Below, one piece after another: positions 29,485 through 52,210 of a stretch of 53,876 nt of DNA. Source of the DNA: a bacterium (GTDB lineage: Bacteria > Patescibacteriota > Microgenomatia > Daviesbacterales > UBA10151); NCBI GenBank assembly GCA_021790255.1, contig JAJYIE010000004.1, forward strand, positions 1 through 53,876, read 5' to 3'. Under the pieces are notes generated by a model, which made no database searches, had not been told where the DNA came from, and was given only the letters and a program-made list of their open reading frames with translations. The number at the start of each line of letters is the position of its first letter. Position 1 is the stretch's first letter. Both the position numbers and the translations under genes were made by a program.

Positions 29485-29519
29485 TAATATACTACATTTT
29501 AGAATTTAGGTGGTAGGAT

Positions 29520-29566: not shown

Positions 29567-29582
29567 GAATAATTATATGGAA

Positions 29583-30453: not shown

Positions 30454-30488
30454 GGTGTTTGGCGCGCGGCCCTCCTACACCCTGCGCG

Positions 30489-30932
30489 TTATTTCTTCTC
30501 CTTCTCTTTCGTCTTAGATTCAGCTTTCTCTTTGACTTCTGCGGTTTTCTTCTCAGCTGCCGGATGCTTTACTTCTTCCCCTTCAGCCAGGCTCATTCTA
30601 ACCATCATTGTCCCATCGCCGGACCGTGCTCCCATCCGCACCAGACGGGTAAAACCTGACGCGCGGTTTTTATAGCGTGGGGTGATCTCTTCGATTAGCT
30701 TCTTAATAACTTCTTTTTGGGCCAAAGATGCAGCCAGCACATTACGGTCAGCCTGGCTACCATTTTTACTTTTGACCACCAAGCGGTCAAACAGGCCACG
30801 GACAGCCTTGGCTTTCGTTTCACTGGTAACAATTGCTTCCTCGAGAATCAAGCTACGGAGTAACCCTTTAAAAAGGGCTGTACGTTGATTTTTGTTGCGT
30901 CCAAGGTGCTTACCATAAACTCTATGCCTCAC
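30489..30932 (-). CDS. rplQ: 50S ribosomal protein L17
   Basis: MRHRVYGKHLGR, TSETKAK, RASGFTR. Confidence 0.97.
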   Translation of the reverse strand: MRHRVYGKHLGRNKNQRTALFKGLLRSLILEEAIVTSETKAKAVRGLFDRLVVKSKNGSQADRNVLAASLAQKEVIKKLIEEITPRYKNRASGFTRLVRMGARSGDGTMMVRMSLAEGEEVKHPAAEKKTAEVKEKAESKTKEKEKK

Positions 30933-31830
30933 TTAAACTCAAACCCCTTTCTGTAAGCTTCTCGGTAATCAGGTTTATGGATTGAACTCCAAGGTTTTTA
31001 GTTTTCAAAAGCTGGGTACGGGGGGTGGTTGTCAGCCGCTCAACGGTATCAATATCAATTGCTTTTAAGGCGTTAGTTATTCTCACCGGCAAATCCAGCT
31101 CCTCGACACTTAACTTTAAAACTTCATTGGAGACGCTCGGCACCACAGTCTCTTCCGCTTCAAAAGTCGGCTCAAAAATCTGCTTAAAATAATCACTTAA
31201 AACCTTGGCGCTGTAAATTAGAGCTTCCTGGGCATCCACCGTCCCGTCGGTAGTGACACGCATCACCAGCTTATCGAAGTTTGCTTTCCTGCCTACCCGG
31301 GTCGGCTCAATATGATAATCCACAGCCAAAATCGGTGAGAAAATAGAATCAACCATAATCACACCCAGCTCAGCTGTTTTCTTCTCGTCTGCCAGAACAT
31401 ACCCCACACCTTTTTCCACTGTCATTTCAATGTTAAGTTTCGCCCCGGCAGTGTTTAAAGAAGCAATATGCTGATCAGGATTGACAATTTCTCCTGCTCC
31501 CAGAGTATCAATATCCCGGGCCTTTACCTCACTCTTACCCGAGGTGTGAAGGCGCATTTTCACCGGCCCGTCGGAGAACAGCTTAATTCGCACCTTCTTT
31601 AAGTTAAGGATAATTTCCGTAACATCCTCGGAAATGCCGTTGATGGTAGAAAATTGGTGAGAAACTCCGTCAATTTTTATAGAGGAGATTGCTGCCCCGG
31701 ATAAGCCAGTTAAGAGAACCCTGCGCAGGCAATTACCGATGGTGTGGCCAAAACCGCTCTCCAGCGGTTCAATGGCAAAAGTGGTGGTATTGCCATCTTC
31801 TTCAATTTTGTTAACTTTAAAATAAGTCAT
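30922..31830 (-). CDS. rpoA: RNA polymerase alpha subunit
   Basis: EPLESGFGHTIGNCLRRVLL, HQFSTINGISEDV, LPVRITNAL. Confidence 0.97.
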   Translation of the reverse strand: MTYFKVNKIEEDGNTTTFAIEPLESGFGHTIGNCLRRVLLTGLSGAAISSIKIDGVSHQFSTINGISEDVTEIILNLKKVRIKLFSDGPVKMRLHTSGKSEVKARDIDTLGAGEIVNPDQHIASLNTAGAKLNIEMTVEKGVGYVLADEKKTAELGVIMVDSIFSPILAVDYHIEPTRVGRKANFDKLVMRVTTDGTVDAQEALIYSAKVLSDYFKQIFEPTFEAEETVVPSVSNEVLKLSVEELDLPVRITNALKAIDIDTVERLTTTPRTQLLKTKNLGVQSINLITEKLTERGLSLSEA

Positions 31831-31840
31831 ATTTAAAATA

Positions 31841-32446
31841 TTACCTGCTGTAGTACTCAACAATCAACTGCTCGGCTATGCCCTGCTCCATCTCATCCCT
31901 GCTCGGCGCTCTTAAAACCTTGCCTACTGTGGCTTTTCTTTCCAGCCAGCTCGGCAAGGTTGATTGCGACTCTAAACTCTTTCGAACTTGTGTATTATCT
32001 AACATTTTTCCCCAAATAGCAACAGTTGATCCTGGTTTAACTTGGAAGGAGGGAATATTCATTTTTTTGCCGTTAACCAAGATGTGATTATGGGAAACCA
32101 GCTGCCTGGCTCCGGCCCGGGAAGGGGAAAAACTCAACCGGTAAACTACATTATCCAGCCTCATCTCCAAAAGCTCCAACAGTCTACTGCCGGTATTGCC
32201 ACGGGAGCGGCTGGCCGCTTTATAATAGTTGGCAAACTGTTTTTCCAAAACACCGAAGATACGGCGGGCTTTTTGCTTTTCCCGCAACTGGATGCCGTAC
32301 TCTGAAACTTTGCGCCTTAAACGGGCATTACCATGCTGGCCGGGCGGAACTGCTCCCTTTCTTTCAATAAACTCAGTATCCTTGGCAAAAAGGGCTACTT
32401 TTTCCCGCCTGCTTAATCTTCTTTTTGGTCCTGTATACCTGGCCAT
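31841..32446 (-). CDS. rpsD: 30S ribosomal protein S4
   Basis: MARYTGP, PPGQHG, QLREKQK, LEMRLDNVVYR, IVEYYSR. Confidence 0.97.
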   Translation of the reverse strand: MARYTGPKRRLSRREKVALFAKDTEFIERKGAVPPGQHGNARLRRKVSEYGIQLREKQKARRIFGVLEKQFANYYKAASRSRGNTGSRLLELLEMRLDNVVYRLSFSPSRAGARQLVSHNHILVNGKKMNIPSFQVKPGSTVAIWGKMLDNTQVRKSLESQSTLPSWLERKATVGKVLRAPSRDEMEQGIAEQLIVEYYSR

Positions 32447-32851
32447 TTACACTCTCCTCTTCTTCTTGGCCCTTGGGCCGTTATAGGGCACCGGGGTAAC
32501 ATCAGCAATCATGGTAATATTTAAACCGGCATTGCGCAGGGCCCTGATGGAAGCATCGCGGCCTGGTCCGGGGCCTTTAATGTAAACTTCCGCCGAGGTC
32601 ATTCCCAACTCCCGGGCTTTATTTGCCACCTCAGAGACTGCAGTGATGGCAGCATAAGGCGTGGACTTGCGGGCACCTTTAAAGCCGCTGGCGCCGGAAG
32701 AGCTCCAGGCCACGGCATTTCCCAGGTGGTCAGTTAAAGTTACCAGAGTATTATTAAACGTGGCTGTAACATAAAAGCGGCCTGATGAAACCTGCCTGGG
32801 AGCAGCTTTTTTGGCAGTTTTCGCTTTATTGGTTTGTACTTTTTTTGCCAT
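32447..32851 (-). CDS. rpsK: 30S ribosomal protein S11
   Basis: ATFNNT, GARKSTPYAA, GPGPGR, DVTPVPYNGPR. Confidence 0.97.
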   Translation of the reverse strand: MAKKVQTNKAKTAKKAAPRQVSSGRFYVTATFNNTLVTLTDHLGNAVAWSSSGASGFKGARKSTPYAAITAVSEVANKARELGMTSAEVYIKGPGPGRDASIRALRNAGLNITMIADVTPVPYNGPRAKKKRRV

Positions 32852-32919
32852 ATTTATTATTTGAAAACAAGTTTAAAATCTTCCTAAACGTGGTTGTCAG
32901 TCCGAGCGAAGCCAGAGAA

Positions 32920-33294
32920 CTACTTTTCCTCCTTTTTCACGGTTCCGATTGTCTTCCTCTTACCACGCTTGGTTCGGGCATTGGAGCGGGTTCTCTGTCC
33001 CCGGACCGGCAATCCCCTGCGATGGCGCAGCCCCCTGTAGGTCCCAGTCTCCTCCAAACGGCGGATGTTGCCCGCCACTTCCTGACGCAGGTCACCTTCC
33101 ACGGTAAAAGAATCCAGTGCTTTCTGTAACCGGCCTACCTCTTCCTCTGAAATGTCCTTAACCCTCTTGCTGCCTTCCACAGCTGCTTTGGCCATTAATT
33201 GGACCACGTTTGACCGGCCTATACCATAAATGTATGTCAACCCAATGTCAACCCTCTTATTATCCGGTATTTCAACTCCAGCAATTCTAGCCAT
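32920..33294 (-). CDS. rpsM: 30S ribosomal protein S13
   Basis: MARIAGV, LTYIYGIG, VEGDLR, LPVRGQRT. Confidence 0.97.
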   Translation of the reverse strand: MARIAGVEIPDNKRVDIGLTYIYGIGRSNVVQLMAKAAVEGSKRVKDISEEEVGRLQKALDSFTVEGDLRQEVAGNIRRLEETGTYRGLRHRRGLPVRGQRTRSNARTKRGKRKTIGTVKKEEK

Positions 33295-33422
33295 TACTTT
33301 TGATTCCTCCGCCATAAATCAGCCGGACATTCCTGGGCAGCATCAGCCATCAATCTAATCATTGTCAAATCTCGTAGATCCTCCCTGGTTTTAATATACC
33401 TTCTGGCTTCTATAGTACTCAT
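33294..33422 (-). CDS. 42-aa ORF inserted between rpmJ and rpsM
   Basis: The ATG is 2 nt after the rpmJ stop, and its TAA overlaps the rpsM ATG (TAATG). Confidence 0.5.
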   Translation of the reverse strand: MSTIEARRYIKTREDLRDLTMIRLMADAAQECPADLWRRNQK

Positions 33423-33424
33423 AT

Positions 33425-33541
33425 TTATCCTTGGCGTTGTTTATGGCGCGGGTCGCGGGAACAGATTACATATAACACGCCCTCGCGCTTGACTATTTTA
33501 CAAAATTTACACCTCTTTTTAATGCTTGCTTGTACTTTCAT
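33425..33541 (-). CDS. rpmJ: 50S ribosomal protein L36 (Zn-binding type)
   Basis: Hand translation [38 protein letters not shown]. Confidence 0.97.
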
Positions 33542-33556
33542 TTCTTAGTCTCCTTA

Positions 33557-33799
33557 TTATCTTAGCCGAAACGTTATCCTCGCCTTCTCCAGATCGTACT
33601 TCGGACTCATCTCCATCCTGACCCGATCCCCTGCCAAAAGTTTTATATAATGCATGCGCATTTTACCGGAAATGTGGGCCAAAATCACTCTCCCAACCAG
33701 TTCCGGCAGACTTTCCGCCCGGTCAATCTCTACCCGGAAAAGGGTGTTGGGTAAAACTTCAGTAATTTTCCCTTCTACCTCGATAACGTCGTTATTCAT
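33557..33799 (-). CDS. infA: Translation initiation factor IF-1
   Basis: [34 protein letters not shown]. Confidence 0.96.
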
Positions 33800-33852
33800 G
33801 CAAATTTCAAATCAGCCCAACAAAAACCCTGCATCCCTTGCAAAGCTTCCAC

Positions 33853-33881
33853 ATTTTATCAGGAATAGCTTCAAAATACAA
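33853..33881 (-). promoter_or_regulatory. Sigma70-type promoter for the infA-rpmJ-alpha operon
   Basis: TTGTAT-17 bp-TAAAAT on the minus strand. Confidence 0.65.
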
Positions 33882-33929
33882 CTCTATCTTGATGGAACAC
33901 CAGATGCTGTTTTGCTAGAATAAATTTAG

Positions 33930-34925
33930 ATGGACAATGAGGCAAATACTGAATCCGAAATTATGGCCGGGGAGAGCAGTCAGGTACCGGAGCGACAGCC
34001 ACAGGTCGAAAAAAAGCTGAACAGCGCTTTATCTTTAGAAAATATTTACTGCCAGATTTACCAAAATACTCATGGCGAAAATCCTCTGCAAGTGCTGGAG
34101 GCCCAAAAAACAGCTGAGCTACGGCAATTAAACCCACCCGGAAGCAGCAATTCTACATCTGACGAAATGGAAAGGATGTGGGCTACCAGCCGGGAATACT
34201 CGGTGAAAGAAGTCGGTTTTCCAAATCAGGAAATTGGCGAATTGCATAACATGATGCCCCACGGGCGGGACTTTTTTGCCAGTACCGAGTATAAAACCGC
34301 CCTTTTGCAGTCTGCCATTAAATTAGACGAGTTCGTTCACAACAAAACTGACAACAGCGACATGCTCGCAGAAAGACTGGCCAGGGAAAAATTAACCTGG
34401 CAAACCGCCATAGTCCGGAATTTACACAACGCCGCTCAGGATGAGGGGTCTATTGATATTGACTCAGCGTCCGTTTTAAAGTCTTTAATCGAAGACGAGA
34501 AGCCCGTTGATGGAGACAGGGAATTTTATCAACTGGATGAAAAAACCGCCAGAGAATTTTCTGTTCAGCTGAGTACAGTATTACACGAGATAGGGTTATC
34601 CGATGAAGAAATCAAAGCCGGAAAAGAGCTTTTATGTGAATCCCTTGGCATAAAATTGGAGCCTACCCACCCAGTTGGAGAAGAAAATCCGCTGTCCTGT
34701 CAAAGCGCTCTCCCCCCAGCTGAATTACCTAAGTTAACCAGCCTCCTCAAATCAGAATACGCCGGCAGCCTCTTAATTCCATTGTTCCATTACAATTTTC
34801 AAGAAACCAAAGATCCAGCAGCTTTTGCTAAACAGTCTCTCGACCGCCAAATCTGGTTAGCCCATCCGGAAAGATATGATCTGGACAAAGTTAAAACCGC
34901 CTATTACCGCTCAGTCATCCCCTAG
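33930..34925 (+). CDS. Hypothetical protein (N-terminal part of an amber-interrupted frame)
   Basis: 331 aa; the TAG at 34923 is in frame with the next ORF. Confidence 0.65.
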   Translation: MDNEANTESEIMAGESSQVPERQPQVEKKLNSALSLENIYCQIYQNTHGENPLQVLEAQKTAELRQLNPPGSSNSTSDEMERMWATSREYSVKEVGFPNQEIGELHNMMPHGRDFFASTEYKTALLQSAIKLDEFVHNKTDNSDMLAERLAREKLTWQTAIVRNLHNAAQDEGSIDIDSASVLKSLIEDEKPVDGDREFYQLDEKTAREFSVQLSTVLHEIGLSDEEIKAGKELLCESLGIKLEPTHPVGEENPLSCQSALPPAELPKLTSLLKSEYAGSLLIPLFHYNFQETKDPAAFAKQSLDRQIWLAHPERYDLDKVKTAYYRSVIP

Positions 34926-34964
34926 GCCTTACAGATACTAGAAAACAGAACCAATACCCCGGAG

Positions 34965-35867
34965 TTGAACCGGCAGATGGCTCTGGTAAAAGCAGCCTGG
35001 CAAAATGGAGAGTTATTGGACCACGAAGGCGATGTACGGCAATTTTTGGATGATGCAGTTGAATTTAGAAACCGAGAAAATGGCCTGGCCAGGGTGAGTG
35101 TGAAGGGATTTGAATTTTTTCCAATCGATTCAATCAGCAACCGTTCGATAGCAGAAGACGTTCTCTCTCTTCTGCCTGCAGGTTTTGATAAGAATGGCCT
35201 GCCAGCAATTACGTATGAAGACATCTCTTATTTGAGTGTAGACGTGCAAAAAGACAACTCCGCGGGAGAAAATACTATTACCCAGGGGAGAATCTTAGGT
35301 CGGACTGGTCCAGGCAATTTAGACGTTTATCAGGACAGCCAATTTGCTGAAAAAATCTTAGGTCAGGATAACCCACTAGAAGCCATCACCACCAAGAGGG
35401 AGAGGCTGAAACAAACTTTCGCCCACGAGATTGGTCACCACTGGTTCGATCAATTAAGACATAGGTATAAAGACAAGTTGGAAGTTGTTATGAAGCTTCT
35501 GGAAGATGACTTTAGCCAAGACAAAGATCTCTTCAATACCGGTATTAGCTCTTATTACGGCACAGCCGTAGAAGTCTTCCGCCGGCACCATCAGGAAGGG
35601 GCAGCCCAGCGAAGAATGTTTTTGGAAGGCGGAGCCCAGGAAGATCTAAGTTACAGAATAAATTCCGGAGTTTCTCCTTTTATTATGATCAACGAAACGA
35701 TAGCGGGCATCTGGGAAATATCCCAAGATCCGGAGAAATTGGCCAGACTTCAGAAAGAACTACCCGGTCACTTCGAACTTTACCGCTGCATGAAAGAAGA
35801 AGGATATTTGGAATCGAAGTTATCTGTCCAAACTGGCAATAAACCTAATACTTCCGCCAGTCAGTGA
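34965..35867 (+). CDS. Putative zinc metallopeptidase domain protein (HEXXH)
   Basis: FAHEIGHHW plus downstream NETIA (gluzincin-like third ligand). Confidence 0.65.
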   Translation: MNRQMALVKAAWQNGELLDHEGDVRQFLDDAVEFRNRENGLARVSVKGFEFFPIDSISNRSIAEDVLSLLPAGFDKNGLPAITYEDISYLSVDVQKDNSAGENTITQGRILGRTGPGNLDVYQDSQFAEKILGQDNPLEAITTKRERLKQTFAHEIGHHWFDQLRHRYKDKLEVVMKLLEDDFSQDKDLFNTGISSYYGTAVEVFRRHHQEGAAQRRMFLEGGAQEDLSYRINSGVSPFIMINETIAGIWEISQDPEKLARLQKELPGHFELYRCMKEEGYLESKLSVQTGNKPNTSASQ

Positions 35868-36648
35868 GCACTTCCGGCCCGTTCTTCCCCACAATCACGC
35901 TCATTTCAAAAAGACCGCCCAGGCTGCCGTCATCAGTGGCCAGTGTCCAGCCGTCATCTTTCTCGTAAATTTCTCCCCTTCCACCGGCGTAGATGGATTC
36001 AATGGCAATGGTCATATTCTCCTGCAGCTTCAAGCCTACCCCCTCCTTACCGAAAGTTGGCACTTCCGGATCCTCATGAGCTGCCCGGCCTACTCCATGT
36101 CCGGATAAGCTTTTGACCACCCTGTATCCTGCTCTCTCAACCGTCTGCTGCAGTGCCGAGGAAATATCACCGATTCTGTTTCCTGCTTTGGCCTGCGCCA
36201 CTGCTTTCCACAGCGCCTCCTCTCCCGCTTTTAAAAATCGCCTTTTTTCTCCTTCTTGCCCATTGCCCGCCTCCTGTCCTCCCACCAGTACAGACCAGGC
36301 AGAATCGGTATGCCAGCCCTTATAAACTGCCCCCAGGTCAACTCCCAAAACATCTCCTTCCCGCAAGGTGATCGGCCGGGGGATGCCGTGCACCACCTCA
36401 TCGTTGACTGTCAGGCAGGTTGTATAGTAATAACCGGGGACTGTCTTAAAAGAAGACTGCCCTCCCAGCCGCGTTATTTCCCTGGTGGCAATTTCTTCCA
36501 GCTGCAGCAAACTTACCCCCGGATAACTTGCTTCAATCACCATTTTTAAAGCCCGGGCGGTAATTTCCCCGCTTTTTTTAAGCAAGGCCAGCTCCTGAGG
36601 GTTCCTGACAAGCAGGCGAACATTCTGCTGGGATAAAGAGCTATTCAT
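35845..36648 (-). CDS. map: Methionine aminopeptidase type I
   Basis: VNDEVVHGIP, VDLGA...WHTDSA, GHGVG...HEDP, IAIE, FE. Confidence 0.95.
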   Translation of the reverse strand: MNSSLSQQNVRLLVRNPQELALLKKSGEITARALKMVIEASYPGVSLLQLEEIATREITRLGGQSSFKTVPGYYYTTCLTVNDEVVHGIPRPITLREGDVLGVDLGAVYKGWHTDSAWSVLVGGQEAGNGQEGEKRRFLKAGEEALWKAVAQAKAGNRIGDISSALQQTVERAGYRVVKSLSGHGVGRAAHEDPEVPTFGKEGVGLKLQENMTIAIESIYAGGRGEIYEKDDGWTLATDDGSLGGLFEMSVIVGKNGPEVLTDWRKY

Positions 36649-37177
36649 TTTGCCCTGGCATATAACTTAAGATTTCTTCTGTGACTTTCTCCGGCGGCTG
36701 CCCGCCGTTTATTACTACCAGCGTTCCTCTGCTGCGGAATAAATCCAAGAGAGGTTGGGTATCTGTGCGATACCATGCCAGTCTTTTTTCAATCTTTTCC
36801 GGAGTATCATCCTCCCTCCCTCTAAGCAGCATCCTTTTTATCACTTCATGCTCCGGAACGTCCAGGTAAAAAACCTTATTGAATTTAGGGTCGTACAGTT
36901 GGTACTGAGCCAGTGTCCTGGGATAACCATCAGTAATAAAGCCTTTTTGATACGCCGGACTGTCAATTTTTTCTTTCACCAGATCCACTACCAGATGATC
37001 ATCTGCCAAAGCTCCGTGTTCAATAACCTTGGCCATCCGGCCCCACTTGCTCTCTTCCTTGGCCAGCTCCCGCAACATATCCCCGACAATAATCAGCGGC
37101 AAACCTAGCTTTTGTGCTAAAATTTGCGCCTGCGTTGTTTTACCCGAACCTTGCGGCCCGGCGATCATAATCTTCAC
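36641..37177 (-). CDS. adk: Adenylate kinase (short, no Zn-LID)
   Basis: [26 protein letters not shown]. Confidence 0.93.
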
Positions 37178-38469
37178 CTTTTCAAAAACCCTTCGTAATT
37201 TCTTTCCACCAGCTTGCTCTCAAACTGTTTGGCCAGATCCAAAATTACTGATACCACAATTAAAATACCCGTTCCTCCTACTGCTAAGGTAGTAATCCCG
37301 GTGATCTGGGAAACTATTGAAGGCAAAATTGCTACTATCCCCAGAAAAATTGCTCCCGCCAATGTTATACGGACCAAAATATAATTTAAATAGGCAGCAG
37401 TGGCCGTACCCGGCCTGACGCCGGCTATAAAAGCTCCGGTCTTTTTAATCTCGTCGGCGATTTTATTGGGGTTAAAAATTACTGCCGTATAAAAATAAGT
37501 AAAGCCAATTACCAGCAGGAAATAAGAGAGGTTATAAGTTAAAGAGTGAACCTGGAAATTCAAAACCAAAAATCGGCCTATAGATTGCAGGGTCGGTTGG
37601 GAGGAAGCTTGGGACAAATACTGCCCGCCAAAAGAGGGAACCAAAACCAGGGAAACGGCAAAAATAATCGGAATCACACCAGCCTGGTTAACCCGCAGCG
37701 GCAGATAAGAATATGAGCCGCCGACTTCCCGGCCACCTAAAAAGCGGCGGGCATAATGGATCATAATCTGCCGGCGTCCTTCATTAACATAGACAATCCC
37801 GGCCGTAATTACCAGTGCCAAAGCCGCAAAAATCATGAGGTTTAAAATCTGCTGGGTATCGGTGACGGAAAAAGTTTGTGCCAGGGAAACAGGCGCCCGG
37901 GCAACAATTCCAGCAAAAATCAGCAGGGAGATGCCGTTGCCCACCCCGTACTCTGTAATCAGCTCCCCCAGCCACATGGCAAAAATCGTCCCAGTTGTCA
38001 TTGCCACAATAATCGTCAGAACATCCAAAGGATTTCCTCCGCCGCTGATAACTCCCTGGCTGCGGAGCAGGGCCACCATACCGACTGACTGCAAAACCGC
38101 CAGAGGTACCGTAATATAGCGGGTATATTGGTTAATTTTCTGCCGGCCATACTCTCCTTCCTTGGACAGCGCTTCAAGAGAGGGAAAAACCATCTGCAGA
38201 AGTTGCAAAATAATAGAAGCATTGATGTAGGGGTTCAAGCCCAGAGAGATAATGGAAAAGTTAGCCAGGGTCCCGCCTGAAAAAATATCCAGCAGCCCTA
38301 AAAACTGGTTCCCCTGAAAAAACTGGCGCAGGGCAGCCAAATCTACCCCTCCTACAGGAATATGGGCTGCAATCCTGTAGACTACAACAATTATGGCAGT
38401 GATGATAATTTTGCGTCGCAGTTCAGGGATTTTAAAGGAGTTTATGATCGGGGCAAGCAGATCAGACAT
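37174..38469 (-). CDS. secY: Preprotein translocase subunit SecY
   Basis: [25 protein letters not shown]...[25 protein letters not shown]. Confidence 0.97.
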
Positions 38470-38920: not shown

Positions 38921-39450
38921 GACTCCTGCTTCTCCTTCTTTGCCTTTGCCGTTTCGGATTTCTCCTCCGTCTTTTTACCGCCCATTCTCTCACCGATCAT
39001 TTTCAGCTTACCCAACGCTGCCATGGTTGCATAAACATTGGAGGCCTGGTTGCTGGTACCTAAAATTTTGGAAACCACGTCACTGATGCCGGCTGCCTCA
39101 ACCACCACTCGCACTGCTCCTCCGGCGATAATCCCGGTTCCTGCCGGAGCAGGCCGCAGCATTACACGGGCAGCCCCTCTTTTGACAGTGATGGAGTGGG
39201 GGATTGTCCTGTTTTCATAAAGCGGGATTGTTACCAAATGACGGCGGGCATAACCTGTAGCTTTTCTGACGGCAGACTGGACATCACCGGCCTTGCCCAG
39301 GCCCACCCCAACCCGGCCTTTTTTATCACCAACAACCGCCAAAACCGAGAGGGATCTTTTATCCCCGCCCTGGGTTTTCTTAGACACCCGGTTGACCTGC
39401 ACTACTTTTTCAAAAAACTCTGATTCCTGATTAAAATTTTCTGGGTTCAT
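38917..39450 (-). CDS. rpsE: 30S ribosomal protein S5
   Basis: VNRVSKKTQGG, VGVGLGKA, PAPAGTGIIAGG; alternative start at 39486. Confidence 0.96.
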   Translation of the reverse strand: MNPENFNQESEFFEKVVQVNRVSKKTQGGDKRSLSVLAVVGDKKGRVGVGLGKAGDVQSAVRKATGYARRHLVTIPLYENRTIPHSITVKRGAARVMLRPAPAGTGIIAGGAVRVVVEAAGISDVVSKILGTSNQASNVYATMAALGKLKMIGERMGGKKTEEKSETAKAKKEKQES

Positions 39451-39564
39451 AGTCTTTTTGACTATTTGGTCATATCGTTGAACCATTTATAAAGGCTAAA
39501 GAGCCAAACAGTCCACCGCAACCTTTTAGTTTTTTATCCTCCTTAAAATCTCATTGTTTATTCT

Positions 39565-39585
39565 TAAATCATAAATCATAAATCC
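39565..39585. repeat. Heptamer tandem (TAAATCA)x3 just after the rplR stop
   Basis: taaatca taaatca taaatcc. Confidence 0.8.
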
Positions 39586-39587
39586 TC

Positions 39588-39926
39588 CTAAAATTCAAGG
39601 CCACCTTCTCGGGCTCCTTGTGCCAATTTTTCTATCCGTCCGTGGTAAAGATATCCACCCCGGTCAAAAACCACTTTCTTTATACCCTTTTTTGCAGCTG
39701 CCGTAGCCAATTGCTTCCCAACCTCAAAAGCCTTCTCTGCCTTAACTTTTCCTGCCATCTTCAAATCAGAGGCTGCTACCAAGGTTTTACCCTGCCCGTC
39801 ATCAATTATCTGGGCATAGATGTGTTTGGCGGAGCGGAAAACCGCCAGCCTGGGCCGCCCGGTTGTGCTCGCCACCGTTTTTCTGACCCGGTAATGCCGT
39901 TTTTTCCTTGCAACAACTGTGTTCAT
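39588..39926 (-). CDS. rplR: 50S ribosomal protein L18
   Basis: [27 protein letters not shown]. Confidence 0.97.
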
Positions 39927-39932
39927 AACTGG

Positions 39933-40481
39933 TTATTTTGTCCCTACCTTACTGGCCTTGCCGGCTTTGCGGCGGACATACTCACCGCTATAACGAATTC
40001 CTTTGCCCTGGTAAGGCTCCGGCGGCCGAACTTTTCTGACTGAGGCAGCTACCTGTCCGACAACAATTTTATCCGTGCCGGATACAGTAATTTTAGTGTT
40101 GTCCTCTATCGCAAATTTAATCCCCTCCGGCGCAATTATCTCTACCGGATGAGAAAAACCAACGCTTAAAGTCAGTTTGTCGCCGGAAGATTGAGCCCTA
40201 AACCCCACTCCGACAAGTTCTAACCTTTTTTGCCACCCCTTTTCTACTCCTGTCACCATATTTGCAATTAGTGAACGGGAGAGGCCGTGGACTGAGCGGG
40301 AAATTTTATCTTCCCCTTTGCGCCTAACCACTACCTGCTGTCCCTCTACCTGCACCTTAACCTGAGCAGGAATTTGTAGAGACAAGGAGCCCAGCGGCCC
40401 TTCCACCTGCAGCATATCGCCGTCAATGGTAACACCAACTCCGGCAGGCAGTATTACTGGTGCATTTCCGATTCTTGACAT
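39933..40481 (-). CDS. rplF: 50S ribosomal protein L6
   Basis: MSRIGNAP, GVGFRA, PPEPYQGKGIRY. Confidence 0.97.
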   Translation of the reverse strand: MSRIGNAPVILPAGVGVTIDGDMLQVEGPLGSLSLQIPAQVKVQVEGQQVVVRRKGEDKISRSVHGLSRSLIANMVTGVEKGWQKRLELVGVGFRAQSSGDKLTLSVGFSHPVEIIAPEGIKFAIEDNTKITVSGTDKIVVGQVAASVRKVRPPEPYQGKGIRYSGEYVRRKAGKASKVGTK

Positions 40482-40484
40482 AAT

Positions 40485-40858
40485 TTACCACACGTAGGCC
40501 ATCACTTCTCCGCCTACTTTCTCCTTTCTCGCTTGCTTGTCTGTAAGTACCCCTTTGGGTGTTGAGATAATAGCTACACCTAGGCCCTCATAAACATAAG
40601 GCAAGTTGCGGCTGCCGCTGTACACCCGCCTTCCGGGTTTGGACACTCTTTAACATCCGTTAAAGCCGGCTGGCGGTTACTGTATTTTAAAGTCACTTTA
40701 ATTTGCCGGCCTTCTGCCTGGTAACCGTCGATAAATTGCTCTTTTTTAAGCAGCTCGCAGATAGCCAGGCCCAGCTTGGAATAATCAGCTGCCACTTCCT
40801 TGCGGGAAGCAAGATAGCCGTTCTTTATTCTTATCAGTAAATCTCCGACTTTATCCAT
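40485..40858 (-). CDS. rpsH: 30S ribosomal protein S8 (apparent 1-nt frameshift at 40649-40651)
   Basis: N-terminus DLLIRIKNG. Adding one A restores [11 protein letters not shown]...[12 protein letters not shown]...GGEVMAYVW (124 aa). Confidence 0.93.
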
Positions 40859-40866
40859 ACAACTGT

Positions 40867-40952
40867 AAATTTCTAATTAACCTAAATAATACCTAAATCC
40901 TAATATTTCAAACATTTAGTCATTAGTATTTATTTAGAAATTAGGTTAATTA
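40867..40952. repeat. AT-rich inverted repeat with CTAAAT/ATTTAG units between rpsN and rpsH
   Basis: TAATTAACCTAA (40874-85) / TTAGGTTAATTA (40941-52), perfect 12-bp arms. Confidence 0.8.
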
Positions 40953-40963
40953 TTCTCCTTTCT

Positions 40964-41143
40964 TTACCAACTTGACTTTTTTACTCCCGGCAGCAGTCCC
41001 TGATGGGCCAGTTCCCGAAAGCACAACCGGCAAAGTCCGAATTTACTTAAAATAAAACGGGAACGCCCGCAGCGCATACAGCGTGCATGGTAACGCACCT
41101 GATATTTTTCTTTAGCTTTTACAACGTTGCTTGTTTTAGCCAT
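40964..41143 (-). CDS. rpsN: 30S ribosomal protein S14 (type Z, Zn-binding)
   Basis: Hand translation ...RCMRCGRSR...[23 protein letters not shown], 59 aa. Confidence 0.96.
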
Positions 41144-41197
41144 ATGTTTTTAGTGTGTAGTTAAGGGAACCAGAACTAGACGTTCCGTGCCTACTTA

Positions 41198-41761
41198 CTA
41201 AACCCTAGCTTTCTCCTTCCTAAACGGCATTCCTAAAAGCTCCAGCAATTTGCGCCCCTTTTCCCTGTCCCGAGCGGTAGTAACTATCGTTACTTCCAAA
41301 CCCCGAACCTTGCTGCCGATAACACCTGCCTGGTAATTTACTTCAGGGAAGGTAGTTTGTTCCCTCAGGCCCAAAGTATAGTTCCCTTGCCCGTCAAAAG
41401 CACTGCCGGGCAGCCCCCGAAAATCCCGGACTTTCGGTAGAACAATAGTAATCAGTTTATCTAAAAAATCAAACATCCGCTCCCCTCTCAATGTTGCTAC
41501 TACCCCGATTGGCTGTCCCTGGGATAGCTTAAAATTGGAAATTGATCTCTTACTTTTGGCTACAACGGGCTTTTGTCCGGTTAAAGCTGTTATATTCCCG
41601 CTGACTTTGTCGATAATTTCCTGATTATCCTTGGCATCACCCAAACCGACATTTACCACTATTTTTCTCAGGCGTGGCACTGCCAAATCGTTAGCAATAC
41701 TCCACTCCTTTTTCAACTCGGGTAATATTTCACTTTTATACCTGTCTTTTAGTCTGGACAT
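41198..41761 (-). CDS. rplE: 50S ribosomal protein L5
   Basis: KIVVNVGLG, TGQKP, LPKVRDFRG, GNYTLG. Confidence 0.97.
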   Translation of the reverse strand: MSRLKDRYKSEILPELKKEWSIANDLAVPRLRKIVVNVGLGDAKDNQEIIDKVSGNITALTGQKPVVAKSKRSISNFKLSQGQPIGVVATLRGERMFDFLDKLITIVLPKVRDFRGLPGSAFDGQGNYTLGLREQTTFPEVNYQAGVIGSKVRGLEVTIVTTARDREKGRKLLELLGMPFRKEKARV

Positions 41762-41765
41762 AGCG

Positions 41766-42086
41766 CTATTTCTCCTCCCTTTCTTTGATTACCTGCCCGC
41801 ATTTTTTACAAAATCTTATTTTTTTGTCTCCTTCAGTTTTAAAACCCACCCTGGTAGTTTTTTGACAATTCGGACAAATTAATGCCACATTGCTGACATC
41901 CATTGGTTTACTGATATCCAAAATTCCGCCCTGACTTTGTGCCTGCCGGCGCAAATGCCTCTTGTAAACATTGGCTTCCTCTACCAGCACACGGCCTTCT
42001 TTACTCCACACACGCAAAACCTTGCCGCTACGACCGTTGTCTTTACCAAGCGTTATTTTAACTGTGTCATTTACCCTAATTTTCAT
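41766..42086 (-). CDS. rplX: 50S ribosomal protein L24
   Basis: DTVKITLGKDNG, SNVALICP, RVGF. Confidence 0.96.
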   Translation of the reverse strand: MKIRVNDTVKITLGKDNGRSGKVLRVWSKEGRVLVEEANVYKRHLRRQAQSQGGILDISKPMDVSNVALICPNCQKTTRVGFKTEGDKKIRFCKKCGQVIKEREEK

Positions 42087-42107
42087 AATTTTGATTTTCT
42101 AGCTTTT

Positions 42108-42476
42108 TTACCATACCTCCGGCGCCAGGGATGCAATTTTGGCAAATCCATGGTCCCGCACCTCCCTGGCTACAGGTCCGAAAACCCGGGTAGCCCGTAA
42201 ATTCCCGTCTTTATCAATCACAACTCCGGCATTCTCGTCAAATTTAATGTACGATCCATCCGTTCTGCGCACTTCTTTTTTAGTACGGACAATTATAATC
42301 CTGACAATCTCCGCATCTTTAACCTGTCCGTTGGGATTTGCCCCTCTCACCACTCCCACTACCACCTCACCCAAACCCGCCTTCCGCTTTCCTGAACCGC
42401 CCAAAGGCTGCACAACATAAAGCTGCCTCGCCCCGCTGTTATCCGCAACTTTTAATACTGACCTGTGCTGAACCAT
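42108..42476 (-). CDS. rplN: 50S ribosomal protein L14
   Basis: [31 protein letters not shown]. Confidence 0.97.
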
Positions 42477-42505
42477 ATGTTAGCTGCTAGTCCGCAGACT
42501 ACGTG

Positions 42506-42964
42506 CTATCTCTCCTCCTTTTCCCTACTCTTTATTGTTGCTTTTTCACTTTTTGCAGTTTCTTCTTTTTCCTCTTTCCCAACCTCTGCTTTTTCCTCCG
42601 GCATAACCTCCGCAATTGCCTCGGCTGCATCTTCCTTTAGCTCTTCCCTTACCACCGCTGCAACATCTTTACCGACTACCCGTACTATCCGGAAGTTTTT
42701 ATTCTTGGAAACAGGCCGGCCGTGGCTAATTTCCACCACATCACCTACCGCAACTTTTATATCATCTTGTACCAGATACCTTTTACTTCGCCTGAAAGAT
42801 TTTCCGTAAAGCGGGTGCGTCTTCCGGTTTTCCACCAATACAGTTACGGTCTGCGGCTGATTGGCAGTCACAACACGACCACGCAAAACCTGGCCCATGG
42901 CGGCTGCCGCCTGTTCCTTCTTGACTTCTACTTGTTTTGTTCTAGTCTGCACTTTTTTAGCCAT
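42506..42964 (-). CDS. rpsQ: 30S ribosomal protein S17 (N- and C-terminal extensions)
   Basis: LRGRVV, HPLYGK, GDVVEI...RPVSKNK. Confidence 0.95.
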   Translation of the reverse strand: MAKKVQTRTKQVEVKKEQAAAAMGQVLRGRVVTANQPQTVTVLVENRKTHPLYGKSFRRSKRYLVQDDIKVAVGDVVEISHGRPVSKNKNFRIVRVVGKDVAAVVREELKEDAAEAIAEVMPEEKAEVGKEEKEETAKSEKATIKSREKEER

Positions 42965-42988
42965 ATATTTTGGCAAGTATACTATGTG

Positions 42989-43216
42989 CTACTTCTCCCT
43001 CTTCTCTTCCAAATCTTTTAATAACTGTTTTTGCCTCAGCACCGTCAAAACCTGAGCCAAATCCCGCCTTTTCTTCTTGACCTCCCGCAAATCTGATAGT
43101 TTACTGACATTTTTATCTAAAATCAAACCCGTTATCTCTTTTCGCAAAGCTGTTGCTTTCCCCAAGATGGTGTCGATCTCTGCCTTTTTTACTTCACTAA
43201 GTTCAGTTTTTTTCAA
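42989..43216 (-). CDS. rpmC: 50S ribosomal protein L29
   Basis: Position between rplP and rpsQ; RRDLAQVLT. Confidence 0.88.
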   Translation of the reverse strand: MKKTELSEVKKAEIDTILGKATALRKEITGLILDKNVSKLSDLREVKKKRRDLAQVLTVLRQKQLLKDLEEKREK

Positions 43217-43217
43217 G

Positions 43218-43652
43218 TTAATTCTCCTTTATACCGGACATCCGGCTTTGAATGAAGCGGGTCTTGATCGGCAGCTTGTGAGCTGCCAGGCGCAGCGCTT
43301 CCCGGGCAGTTTCTCCGGAAACAGCACCCAGTTCAAAAATCACACTTCCGGGTTTTACTACCGCCACATAACCTGCCACTTCACCCTTACCGCTACCCAT
43401 CCGGGATTCGGCAGGATGCTTGGTGATCGGCTTATCCGGGAAAACCCTGATCCAGACGCGGCCGCCCCTGGCAGTAAAGCGGGTAATAGCCCGCCGGGCC
43501 GCTTCCAGCTGGCGCGAGGAGATAAACCCCCTGTCCATCGCCTTAATACCGAAAGTACCGAAGCTTAAGGTATCGCCGCGGGTAGCAACTCCGCCTCTTT
43601 TGCCCTTAAATGTTTTCCTGTGTTTAACCCTGCTAGGCTGCAGCAATGCCAT
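43218..43652 (-). CDS. rplP: 50S ribosomal protein L16
   Basis: [24 protein letters not shown]. Confidence 0.97.
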
Positions 43653-43662
43653 ATTTTTCTTG

Positions 43663-43719
43663 TGGCTCGCAGGTTTAGCCCGTAGACACTACGTGCTACC
43701 TCCCATACCCTACGTGCTA
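43663..43719. repeat. Palindromic TAG/CTA heptad lattice anchored on the rpsC stop
   Basis: CTA/CCA at 43689, 43696, 43703, 43710, 43717; TAG at 43676, 43683; CTACGTGCTA occurs twice. Confidence 0.85.
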
Positions 43720-44367
43720 TTTATTTCCTCCTTCCACTTCACCTTTGTTAATCCAAACTTTTACTCCCACATAACCAGATTTGGTCATGGCCGGCACTAC
43801 GGCAAAATCCACATCCTGGCGCAGGGTGTGCAATGGCATGGAGCCGGCCGCTTTCCACTCCCGCCGGGCAATTTCCGCTCCGCCAATTCTGCCGGAAAGC
43901 ACAACCCTCACCCCTTTGGCTCCCGCCTTCATTACCCGCTCCACTGCCTGGTTCATCACCCGCTGGGCCGGCATTCTCCTGACCAACTGCTCAGCAATAT
44001 TTTGAGCCACAAGTTGAGCCCAAAGATCCGGCGATTTAATATCCATCGGTACAATTTCCAGGCTGTTTTCGTCTTTGACATTCAGATGCTGCATTAAAAA
44101 CTTCTTCAGCTCCGTAAGGCCGCTGCCACCCCGACCGATCAAAACCCCCGGCCGTGAAACAAAGATAATTACCTTGGTTTTATTGCTTGCCCGCTCAATT
44201 TCAATGCGGGTCACCCCGGCCTGCCGTAATCTGCCCATCAAAAGCTCCCGGATTTTAATATCTTCCAGAAGGTATTGACGGTACTTTTTATCGGTAGCAT
44301 ACCAGCGGGTCTGCCAGGTACTGGCGTTTCCCATGCGAAAACCCACCGGGTTTACTTTTTGTCCCAT
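43717..44367 (-). CDS. rpsC: 30S ribosomal protein S3
   Basis: MGQKVNPVGFR, RPGVLIG, SGRIGGAEIAR, PLHTLR. Confidence 0.97.
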   Translation of the reverse strand: MGQKVNPVGFRMGNASTWQTRWYATDKKYRQYLLEDIKIRELLMGRLRQAGVTRIEIERASNKTKVIIFVSRPGVLIGRGGSGLTELKKFLMQHLNVKDENSLEIVPMDIKSPDLWAQLVAQNIAEQLVRRMPAQRVMNQAVERVMKAGAKGVRVVLSGRIGGAEIARREWKAAGSMPLHTLRQDVDFAVVPAMTKSGYVGVKVWINKGEVEGGNK

Positions 44368-44400
44368 ATTTTAATTAGCCAAATTGTACATTTCTAAAGA

Positions 44401-44844
44401 CTATTTACCAGTCTTATTACCAATTTGGCTATTTTCTCCTTCCTCCTGTTCAACAATTGCAACTTTTTCAGCACTCTCCATATTTTTGACTTTTGACTTT
44501 TGACTTTTGACTTCCAGATCGTCCGTCAGGACAATTTTGATATGGCTGGTGCGTTTTTTATAAGGCTTGATCCGGCCGCGGGTTCCCGCCCGGTATCGTT
44601 TCATAGCCATGCCTTCATTTATCTCCAGGTTTTTAAAGCTCAGACCGGATTCATCCAGCTTGCGTTCCCGGGCATTAGCCAGCGCGGTTTGAATCGCCTT
44701 AAGAAGCGGCCTGGCTGCCGCTTTATTTGTAAGTCTCAAAACCTGCAGGGAGCGGTTCGGATCCATTTTTCTGACCATATCGGCCACCAGCCGCAGCTTG
44801 CGGGGTGAGGTATGAATATTCTTTTGTATCGATACAATTTCCAT
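44401..44844 (-). CDS. rplV: 50S ribosomal protein L22 with C-terminal extension
   Basis: SPRKLRLVAD, ALANA, KRTSHIKIVL. Confidence 0.96.
   Translation of the reverse strand: MEIVSIQKNIHTSPRKLRLVADMVRKMDPNRSLQVLRLTNKAAARPLLKAIQTALANARERKLDESGLSFKNLEINEGMAMKRYRAGTRGRIKPYKKRTSHIKIVLTDDLEVKSQKSKVKNMESAEKVAIVEQEEGENSQIGNKTGK
44484..44513. repeat. (TTTTGAC)x4 heptamer tandem inside the rplV 3' extension
   Basis: Four exact copies; encodes VKSQKSKVK. Confidence 0.9.
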
Positions 44845-44858
44845 CTTTTAATCTTTTA

Positions 44859-45140
44859 CTATACCTTTGCCGTTGACTTCTCTGTCTTCTTGCCGTGTGA
44901 GCGGAAAATCCGGGTGGGAGCAAACTCACCCAGCCGGTGTCCCACCATCGATTCAGTAACATAAACCGAAGCAAAGGTTTTACCGTTGTGCACCAAAAAG
45001 GTCAGCCCGACAAATTCCGGGGCAATTTGAGAAGCACGGGCCCAAGTTTTAATCGGGCCCTTTTGTCCACTTTGTTGAGCTGCTGCTTTTTTCATCAGCT
45101 TTGCATCAACATATGGTCCTTTTTTAAGCGATCTTGCCAT
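44859..45140 (-). CDS. rpsS: 30S ribosomal protein S19
   Basis: [27 protein letters not shown]. Confidence 0.97.
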
Positions 45141-45143
45141 TTT

Positions 45144-45962
45144 TTATTTTCTCCGTTTTATTATATATTTACCCGACTGTTTGCTTTGTTTTCTGGTTTT
45201 ACCCACTGCCGGGCGGCCGTATTTGGTCATCGGCTGAACCCGGCCGACTCCTGAGCGGCCCTCACCACCACCGTGGGCATGGGAACGGGGATCCTGGGCT
45301 GTACCACGCACCGTCGGCCTGATTCCTAAATGCCGGCTGCGGCCTGCTTTGCCCAAATTAACATTTTTTGTTTCTTCATTACCCAGCGTTCCGATGGTAG
45401 CCAGCGATTCCAAGGGAAACATTCTAATCTCCCCTGATGGAAGTTTCAAGTTAGCAAAAGGAGGTTGTTTAGCCTGCAGAATTAAACTGGTGCCTGCGCT
45501 GCGCCCAATCTGGCCACCTTTACCCGGAATAAGCTCAACGTTGTGTACCAGCGTCCCGATTGGCATATTCTTCAGCCTCATAGCATTACCCGTTCTCACT
45601 TCCACCTTATCACCCGCTATAACTGGGTCCCCTGTCTGCAAATCCTTCGGGGCCAAAATATAACGATAATCCCCGTCCTGGTATTTCACTAGGGCAATAT
45701 CTACATTGCGGTTGGGATCATATTCCAAGGCGACAACTTTGCCTTCTACCCCAAACTTATCCCGACGGAAGTCTATCAGCCGGTAGTACCTTTTATGGCG
45801 GCCTCCCTGATGACGAACGGTTACTGTGCCAAAAGAGCGCCCGCTGTGTTTTTTTAAGATCACCCGCAAGTTTTTCGGCGCATCCGGATTCTTCACCGCC
45901 CGCTTCAGATGGGAAGCAAACCGCCGGGTATTAGTTTTTTCTTTATATTGAACTAGAGACAT
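45144..45962 (-). CDS. rplB: 50S ribosomal protein L2
   Basis: YRLIDF, EYDPNR, RSAGT, LPSGE, HGGGEG. Confidence 0.97.
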   Translation of the reverse strand: MSLVQYKEKTNTRRFASHLKRAVKNPDAPKNLRVILKKHSGRSFGTVTVRHQGGRHKRYYRLIDFRRDKFGVEGKVVALEYDPNRNVDIALVKYQDGDYRYILAPKDLQTGDPVIAGDKVEVRTGNAMRLKNMPIGTLVHNVELIPGKGGQIGRSAGTSLILQAKQPPFANLKLPSGEIRMFPLESLATIGTLGNEETKNVNLGKAGRSRHLGIRPTVRGTAQDPRSHAHGGGEGRSGVGRVQPMTKYGRPAVGKTRKQSKQSGKYIIKRRK

Positions 45963-45977
45963 GTTTTTGTTGATGCA

Positions 45978-46035
45978 TAGTTTGTAAGGAGTAGCGCGTA
46001 GTATCTACGGGCTACTTCCTACCCTCTTCGCGCTA
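45978..46035. repeat. Palindromic TAG/CTA heptad lattice anchored on the rplW stop
   Basis: TAG/TAA at 45978, 45985, 45992, 45999; 3-nt loop; CTA/CTT at 46005, 46012, 46019, 46026, 46033. Confidence 0.85.
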
Positions 46036-51883: not shown

Positions 51884-51889
51884 CTTGGC

Positions 51890-52201: not shown

Positions 52202-52210
52202 ATTATTTTA

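Follow-up and report, generated by a model that had tools for sequence, protein, structure and literature searches.

Heptad-periodic palindromes between stop and start codons of a Microgenomates ribosomal-protein operon, and their likeness to 23S rRNA intervening-sequence cassettes

Among the closest described counterparts of the elements reported here are the intervening sequences (IVSs) in the 23S rRNA of Coxiella and Leptospira, which carry an open reading frame (ORF) for an S23p/intervening-sequence protein (IVP), have inverted ends that form a stem, and are held to be selfish insertions in an essential, highly expressed transcript (PMC4990558). In Coxiella, tandem GACAGAT heptamers lie in the arm that precedes the S23p ORF, their number differs from strain to strain, and the first repeat is the site of RNase III cutting (PMC4990558). 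The transcript studied here is likewise essential and highly expressed: it is the S10-spc-alpha ribosomal-protein operon on the minus strand of contig JAJYIE010000004.1, of which we analyzed a stretch of 53,876 nucleotides ("the window"; nearly all of a metagenomic contig of 53,976 bp). The genomes nearest to it are those of Candidatus Daviesbacteria (Microgenomates, Candidate Phyla Radiation [CPR]; rpsC 71-76% and rplB up to 80% identical). At several junctions of this operon, the stop codon of one gene and the start of the next are separated by palindromic lattices in which TAG triplets, and then CTA triplets, recur every 7 nt. We consider it probable, though by no means certain, that these lattices are gene-less, miniature palindromic members of an IVS/IVP-type class, built of two inverted arrays of degenerate heptanucleotides. 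A literature search found no paper on heptad-flanked genes of the IVP family (PF05635) at operon junctions, nor on their link to gene-less hairpins.

Seven-nucleotide periodicity and insertion at operon junctions

The feature is real and statistically solid. TAG pairs at lag 7 number 13 on the minus strand and 10 on the plus strand of the window, versus about 3.5 at other lags; the comparison between lags was used here because dinucleotide shuffling increases the TAG count and is a misleading null for TAG-N4-TAG. The palindrome TAG.{4}TAG.{3,10}CTA.{4}CTA occurs three times in the window (42481, 43676, and 45992), versus a mean of 0.01 in 300 dinucleotide shuffles, and the same expression with N2, N3, N5, or N6 spacing has no match there. 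Further, the self-match of the operon spacers, about 0.28 elsewhere, rises to 0.384 at lag 7 and to 0.350 at lag 21. A sliding self-match by period over the whole window was uninformative, as coding periodicity dominates it. Tandem Repeats Finder (minimum score 30) did not call the lattices and found only the perfect heptamers (GTCAAAA)x4.3 and (GATTTAT)x3; save for these two arrays, the units are not tandem direct copies of one heptamer, with just 3-4 of 7 bases in common.

On the minus (mRNA) strand, the lattice after rplW runs TAG 46035 (the stop), AAG 46028, TAG 46021, 46014, and 46007, the loop ATA, CTA 46001 and 45994, TTA 45987, and CTA 45980. The lattice after rpsC, 92% identical to it over 24 nt, runs TAG 43719 (the stop) and 43712, TGG 43705, TAG 43698 and 43691, the loop TGT, and CTA 43685 and 43678. 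The rplW stem (45984-46022) comprises 15 Watson-Crick pairs, one G-U pair, and two mismatches over 18 positions, which comes to about 6 bp plus a single mismatch in each heptad. The rplW spacer RNA is predicted to fold at -23.5 kcal/mol (z -3.13) and the rpsC spacer at -19.9 kcal/mol (z -2.57), with none of 200 shuffles as stable in either case; the minimum-free-energy structure of the latter differs from the inner hairpin at 43676-43698. The rpsQ spacer is borderline (z -1.66; 17 of 200 shuffles as stable), and the folds of the rpmC, rplE-rpsN (z -1.08), and rplQ-rplM (z -0.38) spacers are not significant. The rpsN-rpsH spacer has a long stem in its minimum-free-energy fold, yet a z of just -1.04.

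These results bear on a sequence-only reading of the same DNA, which had pointed to the lattices. The strings and positions that it gave after rplW and rpsC are correct on the minus strand, and the period-7 TAG/CTA spacing exceeds chance by the lag-7 peak and by the palindrome count against shuffles. Its periodic hairpin stands in part: a hairpin with interruptions every 7 nt is predicted in the window and in the relatives L009 and L020 (loci compared are designated by L and a number), but with helices of 5-6 bp and single mismatches rather than 3-bp helices and 4x4 loops. Contrary to its assertion of mostly unpaired 4-nt spacers, those of the rplW stem do pair, and conserved triplets with free spacers do not hold as a general rule, as the CPR TAGTAAA family conserves YAAA while its triplet varies. 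Among the shorter versions it proposed, the one after rpsQ is borne out by the palindrome match and the borderline fold, whereas those after rpmC, rplX, rplQ, and rplE are each indistinguishable from chance when taken alone. The 105-nt palindrome after rpsN, the CTA lattice at 29500-29516, the heptads after rplR and tuf, and the (GTCAAAA)x4.3 array in rplV had escaped it. The idea that the spacers place stops in all three frames of both strands was rejected: those after rplW, rpsQ, and tuf do so, one frame stays open in those after rpsC and rplE, and how fast the frames close does not differ significantly from shuffles.

In 21 Microgenomates relatives, the genes at these junctions mostly overlap (TAATG, ATGA) or stand 0-4 nt apart. 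In the four closest relatives, the rplW-rplB junction has the sequence ...GGAGAAAAAATAATGGCA... and the rpsC-rplP junction ...TGATGG or TAATGG; specifically, the closest relatives L083 and L085 have TAATG or TAAATG at rplW-rplB (the closest relatives' rplB being 78-80% identical), and rpsC-rplP lacks a spacer in L084 and L086. Given these spacer-less junctions, the window gained 70 nt at rplW-rplB and 64 nt at rpsC-rplP between stop and ATG. Thus, the window elements are lineage-specific insertions between a stop and the next ATG, in places where the ancestral genes overlapped as TAATG or ATGA. With its first heptad, the element supplies the upstream gene with its TAG stop. The ancestral Shine-Dalgarno sequence (AAGGAGG, in the Lys/Glu-rich tail) now lies 5-8 nt ahead of the TAG stop, and the downstream ATGs retain only A-rich leaders. 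That the hairpin joins the stranded Shine-Dalgarno sequence to the ATG is ruled out, as about 22-38 nt still separate the two when folded. Long Lys/Glu-rich C-terminal tails are seen on several ribosomal proteins of the window (rplW, 130 aa; rpsQ, 156 aa; rplV, 147 aa).

The comparison of the 21 Microgenomates operons with 59 control loci from other phyla shows that spacers of period 7, in which TAG/CTA is the commonest core, are a general trait of Microgenomates ribosomal operons and are lacking in the controls. The relatives' 117 spacers of at least 18 nt have self-match peaks of 0.359, 0.337, and 0.317 at lags 7, 14, and 21, versus about 0.295, and 409 control spacers have no lag-7 peak. 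The relatives' heptads are varied (CAG, CCCTAAA, TTTAAGA, GTCAAAA, and others), and the greatest lag-7 excess is that of CTA (28 versus 0.8 at other lags) and TAG (27 versus 1.6). Of 116 spacers, 12 repeat the stop codon itself at +7 and 13 at +14, compared with about 3 at other offsets and no peak in the controls. Moreover, TAG accounts for 33% of stops at spacers of at least 18 nt and 14% at short gaps, in Microgenomates only, the controls being alike at both.

Homologous elements of 25-85 nt recur at non-orthologous junctions, both within and between genomes. One is common to rplV-rpsC and rpmC-rpsQ of L007 and to rpsE-rplO of L009, and a similarity comparison of spacers revealed further copies (three in L001, three in L020, and four of one family in L009). 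This L009 family folds as an interrupted hairpin in which every TAG stands opposite a CTA.

The 20-kb, Daviesbacteria-like operon of L009 carries a heptad palindrome at nearly every junction, from at least four families (GTAG/CTA, CCGCNGA/GCTGTAA, AAAAGTC/TTTTGRN, and GGACTTA). Other families resembling miniature inverted-repeat transposable elements (MITEs) sit at Daviesbacteria ribosomal-operon junctions in L001 (rpsS-rplV, rplP-rpmC, and rplX-rplE), L002 (rpmC-rpsQ), L010 (rplV-rpsC), and L012 (rplX-rplE). The L001 family reads GATCCTTCG...CTCAGGATGACAATTTG...CAAATTGTCA, and a family of the form GTGGACAATTTGG...CCAAATTTGTCCA is common to three genomes at differing junctions.

PF05635 genes with heptad arms

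The same operon in L020, from Levyibacteriota, holds a full IVP cassette between secY and adk. The TAG stop of secY opens its left arm (TAGTAAA TTGTAAA TAGTAAA TTGTAAA), and its right arm ends in ...TTTACTA+TG, the TG finishing the adk start. This site is empty in sister genomes (...AAATGAAA), the comparison reading AAAAAA/TAGTAAA...TTTACTA/TGAAG. At least five gene-less copies with the cassette's arms, each extending from stop to ATG, lie in L020 at rplF-rplR, rplO-secY, map-infA, infA-rpmJ, and rpmJ-rpsM; one of them is predicted to form helices of 4-6 bp with 1-2-nt loops between them (z -2.7). Judged by their arms, the cassette is the full-length form and these copies are its miniatures, as in MITE families, within the operon and clade of the window.

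PF05635 genes with heptad arms also occur outside L020. Those found by homology alone are all co-oriented within operons (before pth in Woese- and Levybacteria, between leuC and leuD in the Sedimentisphaerales locus L225, and others). Their flanks match themselves at 0.48 at lag 7 against 0.30-0.35, and their left and right arms are complementary at 13-19 of 21 positions (at least 16 in seven of eight loci). In cultured Nostoc, Anabaena, Calothrix, Geminocystis, and Riemerella, the lag-7 self-match of the IVP flanks reaches 0.536, versus 0.32. Specifically, Nostoc edaphicum has (GTAGGGA)x8 ... (TCCCTAC)x5 between nrdB and nrdA, and the Calothrix arms are (GGGTGTA) ... (CTACACC); the IVP gene of Anabaena sp. 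90 lies between cas6 and cas4 (pANA02, L248) and that of a Riemerella plasmid between a sufA-like gene and sufB (L251), each co-oriented with its neighbors. In CPR, cyanobacteria, Bacteroidota, and other phyla alike, IVP genes are thus shown to sit at operon junctions with heptad-periodic inverted flanks, and the Nostocales cases suggest that at least some heptamer arrays of that order are IVP-cassette arms. Between phyla (CPR, WOR-3, and Sedimentisphaerales), IVP proteins share 65-70% identity, a level suggestive of horizontal spread.

A metagenome scan for (CTAGNNN)3CTAG approached the association from the side of the repeat, returning at least 120 stretches, of which 80 loci were analyzed. 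The array is intergenic in all 80; in about one-third, counted from coordinates, the stop of a neighboring ORF lies inside the array or within 12 nt of it, and many arrays form inverted pairs 25-170 nt apart. Among the 122 ORFs that flank these arrays, PF05635 is the joint commonest Pfam family with AAA, at three members each, the others being unrelated housekeeping genes. In L102, the PF05635 gene lies between carA-like and carB-like genes and in the same direction as both, with (GGGNCTA)n on the left that includes the upstream stop and (CCCTAGN)n on the right that stops just before the next ATG. CTAG heptads flank the gene on both sides in L132, and the arms of both these loci are inverted TAG/CTA heptads. 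In L117, the array is clear downstream only, and the stop of the IVP gene itself falls within it. The L132 cassette is from a Levybacteria genome, and TAGCGACTAGT of its arm is also present in gene-less spacers of L007 and L009, both of them Daviesbacteria loci. The L083 ORF 3-413 proved not to be an IVP gene.

The elements and genes of the window

The elements of the window, listed in Table 1, are 30-105 nt long with loops of 3-8 nt.

Table 1. Heptad-periodic elements and related tracts in the window
Feature	Position	Strand	Description
rplW-rplB element	45963..46035	minus	70-nt insertion plus the rplW TAG stop (46033-46035), which is the first heptad
rplW imperfect hairpin GTAGGAAGTAGCCCGTAG-ATA-CTACGCGCTACTCCTTAC	45984..46022	minus	one mismatch per heptad
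rpsC-rplP element	43653..43719	minus	64-nt insertion plus the rpsC TAG stop; paralogue of the rplW element; 21-nt super-period
rpsC inner hairpin TAGCACGTAG-TGT-CTACGGGCTA	43676..43698	minus	palindrome-regex match; arm pairing read from sequence
rpsQ-rplN short copy TAGCACGTAGTC-TGCG-GACTAGCAGCTA	42477..42508	minus	starts at the TAG stop; from sequence and palindrome-regex match
rpmC-rpsQ spacer TAGCACATAGTATAC	42977..42991	minus	two TAGs; probable decayed left arm
rplX-rplE junction TAGCGCTA+TG	41761..41768	minus	8 nt; minimal palindrome, footprint or chance; sequence only
rplE-rpsN spacer	41144..41200	minus	TAG 41207 (in the coding sequence), 41200 (stop), 41193; CTA 41179, 41160, 41153; degenerate, with a phase break
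rpsN-rpsH spacer	40859..40966	minus	AT-rich palindrome of 105 nt (40859-40963); CTA heptads left, TAG heptads right (AATTAACCTAAT...ATTAGGTTAATT); TAG-N4-TAG matches
rplQ-rplM spacer TAACGCGCAGGGTGTAGGAGGGCCGCGCG	30454..30491	minus	weak member; TAA stop, single TAG
rpsI to beta-propeller-gene spacer	29485..29582	minus	CCTACCA CCTAAAT TCTAAAA directly before a GTG start; CTA lattice 29500-29516
rplR-rpsE spacer	39487..39590	minus	non-TAG heptads (GATTTAT)x3 at 39565-39584
tuf-rpsJ spacer	52202..52371	minus	heptads CTTGAAG ATTTGAG GTTGAAG ATTTAAG (52340-52367) directly after the TAG stop, then hairpin and T-run (GGGCGAAAGCCCTTTTTT)
(GTCAAAA)x4.3 in the rplV C-terminal extension	44484..44513	minus	Tandem Repeats Finder

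The first bases of the rpmC-rpsQ spacer, as read from the sequence, equal the rpsC inner arm and loop at 14 of 16 positions, and the heptad tract of the rplR-rpsE spacer is found again at rplB-rpsS in the relative L002. The L009 counterpart of the tuf-rpsJ tract is (GGAnTTA)x4, followed by a similar hairpin and T-run; in the window, the hairpin and T-run after tuf (GGGCGAAAGCCCTTTTTT) read by eye as terminator-like, this region lying outside the terminator scan. In rplV, the Pfam L22 domain stops at residue 107 of 147, and the (GTCAAAA)x4.3 tract is a heptad array absorbed into the coding sequence; the same unit is present at the N terminus of rplB in L008 and at that of rplX in L007.

The operon runs from tuf (52369-53547) to rplQ, rplM, and rpsI (29583-30932), and the identities of its genes were confirmed with Pfam. 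A second assembly is identical to the contig and hence offers no information on polymorphism. An Rfam scan of the window gave one tRNA as its sole match, with no rRNA present. TGA is nearly absent as a stop among all called genes of the window, the sole case being a 201-aa ORF (51278-51883) and the others ending in TAG or TAA.

Several further features of the window were observed in passing. A low-GC block (about 35%; 1-5930) that ends at tRNA-Pro (5855-5927, minus strand) encodes an ABC ATPase (1651-3474) and, with Resolvase, Recombinase, and Zn_ribbon_recom domains, a large serine recombinase (4199-5629); the block looks like a mobile element integrated at a tRNA gene. Three ORFs (201 aa, 319 aa, and a 478-aa Hsp70/MreB-like ORF at 48241-49677) are inserted between rpsJ and rplC (47929-51889); the final 21 nt of rpsJ (51890-51910) are present again at 51190-51210, and an Hsp70-like gene also lies between rpsJ and rplC in the relative L086. 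Two plus-strand ORFs without a Pfam match (331 and 300 aa; 33930-35867) lie between map and infA, opposite to the operon's direction. The rpsH gene (40485-40858) is in two frames, with an N-terminal part up to ...ALTDVK and a conserved C-terminal part ending GGEVMAYVW, by a 1-nt indel that is either an assembly error or a genuine frameshift. Finally, motifs of the types GTCCTGAGC...CGAAGGAT and TTCGGTTCGAGATGAC occur at 48046-48075 and 10868-10883, and similar sequences (CTCAGGATGAC / GTCATCCTGAGCGA) recur in spacers of L001, L014, L020, and L112; together, these appear to be a second widespread short repeat family.

Alternative readings and comparison with known systems

The window copies have the pairing inverted ends and heptameric arm repeats of IVS/IVP elements, and they lie between protein-coding genes rather than in helix 25 or 45 of 23S rRNA. 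With loops of 3-8 nt and no PF05635 gene on the contig, they can at most be gene-less derivatives. As in MITEs, homologous copies occupy unrelated sites (the rplW, rpsC, and rpsQ copies; four in L009; those of L007 and L009 at different junctions), and in the relative L020 a full-length cassette shares its arms with the miniatures of that genome; for the window's own genome, the comparison covers 54 kb. The sequence-only reading had offered, as one possibility, a miniature element directed at stop codons, which fits the insertion state, the copies at non-orthologous junctions, the recurrence of the stop at +7 and +14, and the enrichment of TAG stops at long spacers. It had also mentioned similar heptad tracts around four-helix-bundle (23S-IVP/Avd-like) genes, a link that is verified here by the joint top rank of PF05635 at CTAG arrays, the heptad-periodic and inverted flanks of IVP genes collected blind to the repeat, the L020 cassette with its miniatures, and the Coxiella IVS heptamers (PMC4990558).

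One could instead suppose that the arrays are plain heptanucleotide repeats, of the kinds known as long simple-sequence repeats (LSSRs) and short tandemly repeated repetitive (STRR) sequences, made in place by slippage, neither mobile nor related to IVP. Heptamers are reported to be the commonest long simple-sequence repeats in prokaryotes, TAACTGA direct repeats occur in ribosomal-protein operons of Beggiatoaceae (PMC4679880), the number of Coxiella heptamers is strain-variable (PMC4990558), and the window has perfect arrays of its own in (GTCAAAA)x4.3 and (GATTTAT)x3. Slippage, however, does not produce inverted arms, whereas the arms here are complementary, nor does it place homologous 25-85-nt elements at non-orthologous junctions. 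We therefore find this origin unlikely as a whole; slippage probably shapes the arrays and leaves their placement unexplained. The left arms, with 3-5 UAG at exact 7-nt spacing, would also suit a cis-regulatory RNA that is bound by a ring-shaped protein of the HutP/TRAP kind or by a pentameric IVP and tunes ribosomal-protein stoichiometry. HutP binds (UAGNNNN)3 and TRAP binds (G/U)AG repeats; the arms have the three or more UAGs with 4-nt spacers expected of such a site, and the rplW and rpsC paralogues differ, by eye, at about 2 of 24 TAG/CTA sites versus about 10 of 21 other positions. Yet the sites are not conserved, being missing in the closest relatives; other relatives carry other heptads at other junctions; the CPR TAGTAAA family keeps YAAA and varies the triplet; and the scanned ORFs of the window, from an incomplete genome, include no HutP-like Pfam match. 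A regulatory operator is thus decidedly unlikely.

Imperfect palindromes of 20-40 nt immediately after stops within an operon, whose repeat unit begins with GTAG (the conserved head of repetitive extragenic palindromic [REP] sequences), resemble elements of the REP/bacterial interspersed mosaic element (BIME) type, mobilized by a REP-associated tyrosine transposase (RAYT; a Y1 transposase), which would stabilize upstream mRNA or stall terminating ribosomes. But the partner demonstrated in relatives is a PF05635 gene and not a RAYT, Pfam scans of the window ORFs gave no Y1 transposase match (in an incomplete genome), and 7-nt periodicity is not known to be a REP feature, which leaves this origin highly improbable. 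That the elements act within the operon as intrinsic terminators, attenuators, or promoters is scarcely credible: the hairpins are stable, but in place of a GC-rich stem with a U-tract there is no T-tract after the stems, and the scan showed no terminator or promoter match on the elements and regional counts at shuffle level, on which ground the terminator or promoter reading was rejected.

Several points weigh against placing the window lattices in the IVS/IVP-type class. Just three window copies are significant individually, in the empty-site comparisons the inserted DNA follows the last sense codon or the stop and precedes (A)TG, without a clear target-site duplication, and an exact-pattern metagenome scan for the window hairpin gave no matches. 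Pfam scans of the ORFs on the 54-kb contig found no PF05635 homologue, and none of 246 fetched loci has an IVP gene with window-like GTAGCNC arms, so that the link to the window is one of shared architecture, lineage, and operon, not of sequence homology. The CTAG-array sample was chosen by the repeat itself. To our knowledge, no recombinase or nuclease activity has been described for PF05635 proteins, and RNase III cleavage is proposed by analogy alone, the stems of 16-18 interrupted bp being at what would be the short end for the enzyme.

If the lattices are nonetheless gene-less IVP-type miniatures, the window copies would derive from, or be mobilized like, an IVP cassette elsewhere in the genome. 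Their stem in the transcript might then be cut by RNase III, as the stems of 23S IVSs are, which would split the polycistronic mRNA and uncouple the translation of neighboring cistrons; such cutting could be what allows an essential operon to tolerate the insertion. Heptads would presumably be gained and lost by replication slippage. More tentatively, and as a proposal that we regard as possible rather than probable, PF05635 cassettes and gene-less miniatures may form one widespread, hitherto unrecognized class of mobile element. Such an element would have inverted ends made of heptamer arrays, sit from stop to start in operons and, as IVSs, in 23S helices, supply the stop and regenerate the start, and be tolerated through removal or cutting of its stem at the RNA level; a pentameric IVP would read the 7-nt register, and the STRR heptamers of Nostocales would be the same thing as the period-7 spacers of CPR.

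Were this so, the large, Avd-like family PF05635/TIGR02436, mostly without an assigned role, would be tied to specific sequences, and both the dominance of 7 nt among long simple repeats in some bacteria and the nature of 23S IVSs would be accounted for. Streamlined CPR genomes tolerate repeated insertions in their most essential operon, with genes parted from their Shine-Dalgarno sites, which bears on translation initiation in the CPR. Further, the elements set stop codons and can enter protein tails (rplV), and thereby affect gene calls in metagenome-assembled genomes. Cultured hosts exist for testing, among them Nostoc PCC 7120, Anabaena sp. 90, and Riemerella.

Compared with known systems, the window elements share with HutP/TRAP sites UAG triplets with 4-nt spacers, at least three in a row and in two clusters, but no cognate protein was found for them, they are unconserved among relatives, and their second half is CUA rather than UAG. 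The mycobacterial interspersed repetitive units (MIRUs) are direct repeats of 40-100 bp with small ORFs; they too fill intercistronic gaps of operons and respect the neighboring stop and start, but they are not heptad palindromes. The REP/BIME sequences of Gammaproteobacteria are likewise imperfect palindromes directly after operon stops, with a GTAG-like head and possible effects on mRNA stability or termination, whereas the window elements are heptad-periodic, belong to another phylum, and have no RAYT gene in sight in the window. Cyanobacterial STRRs, heptanucleotide LSSRs, and the TAACTGA repeats of Beggiatoaceae (PMC4679880) have in common with them the 7-nt unit, an intergenic position that is often just before starts and in ribosomal-protein operons, and a sporadic spread; these, however, have been described as a single heptamer repeated directly in tandem, and the window units are degenerate, arranged in inverted arms, and anchored at stops.

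MITEs are closer, being small, non-coding, and present in several copies with terminal inverted repeats, and in L020 a full cassette coexists with deletion derivatives that have identical arms. They differ in that the L020 partner encodes a 120-aa four-helix-bundle protein and not a recognizable transposase, that the inverted repeats here are heptad arrays, that no target-site duplication is defined, and that placement is exactly from stop to start. Relative to the 23S IVSs, finally, the window elements sit at mRNA operon junctions and not in helix 25 or 45 of 23S rRNA, lack an ORF, and measure 30-105 nt versus about 430 nt, and excision by RNase III, known for IVSs, would apply to them by analogy; the protein encoded by 23S IVSs is of the same family as that of the Microgenomates operon cassettes.

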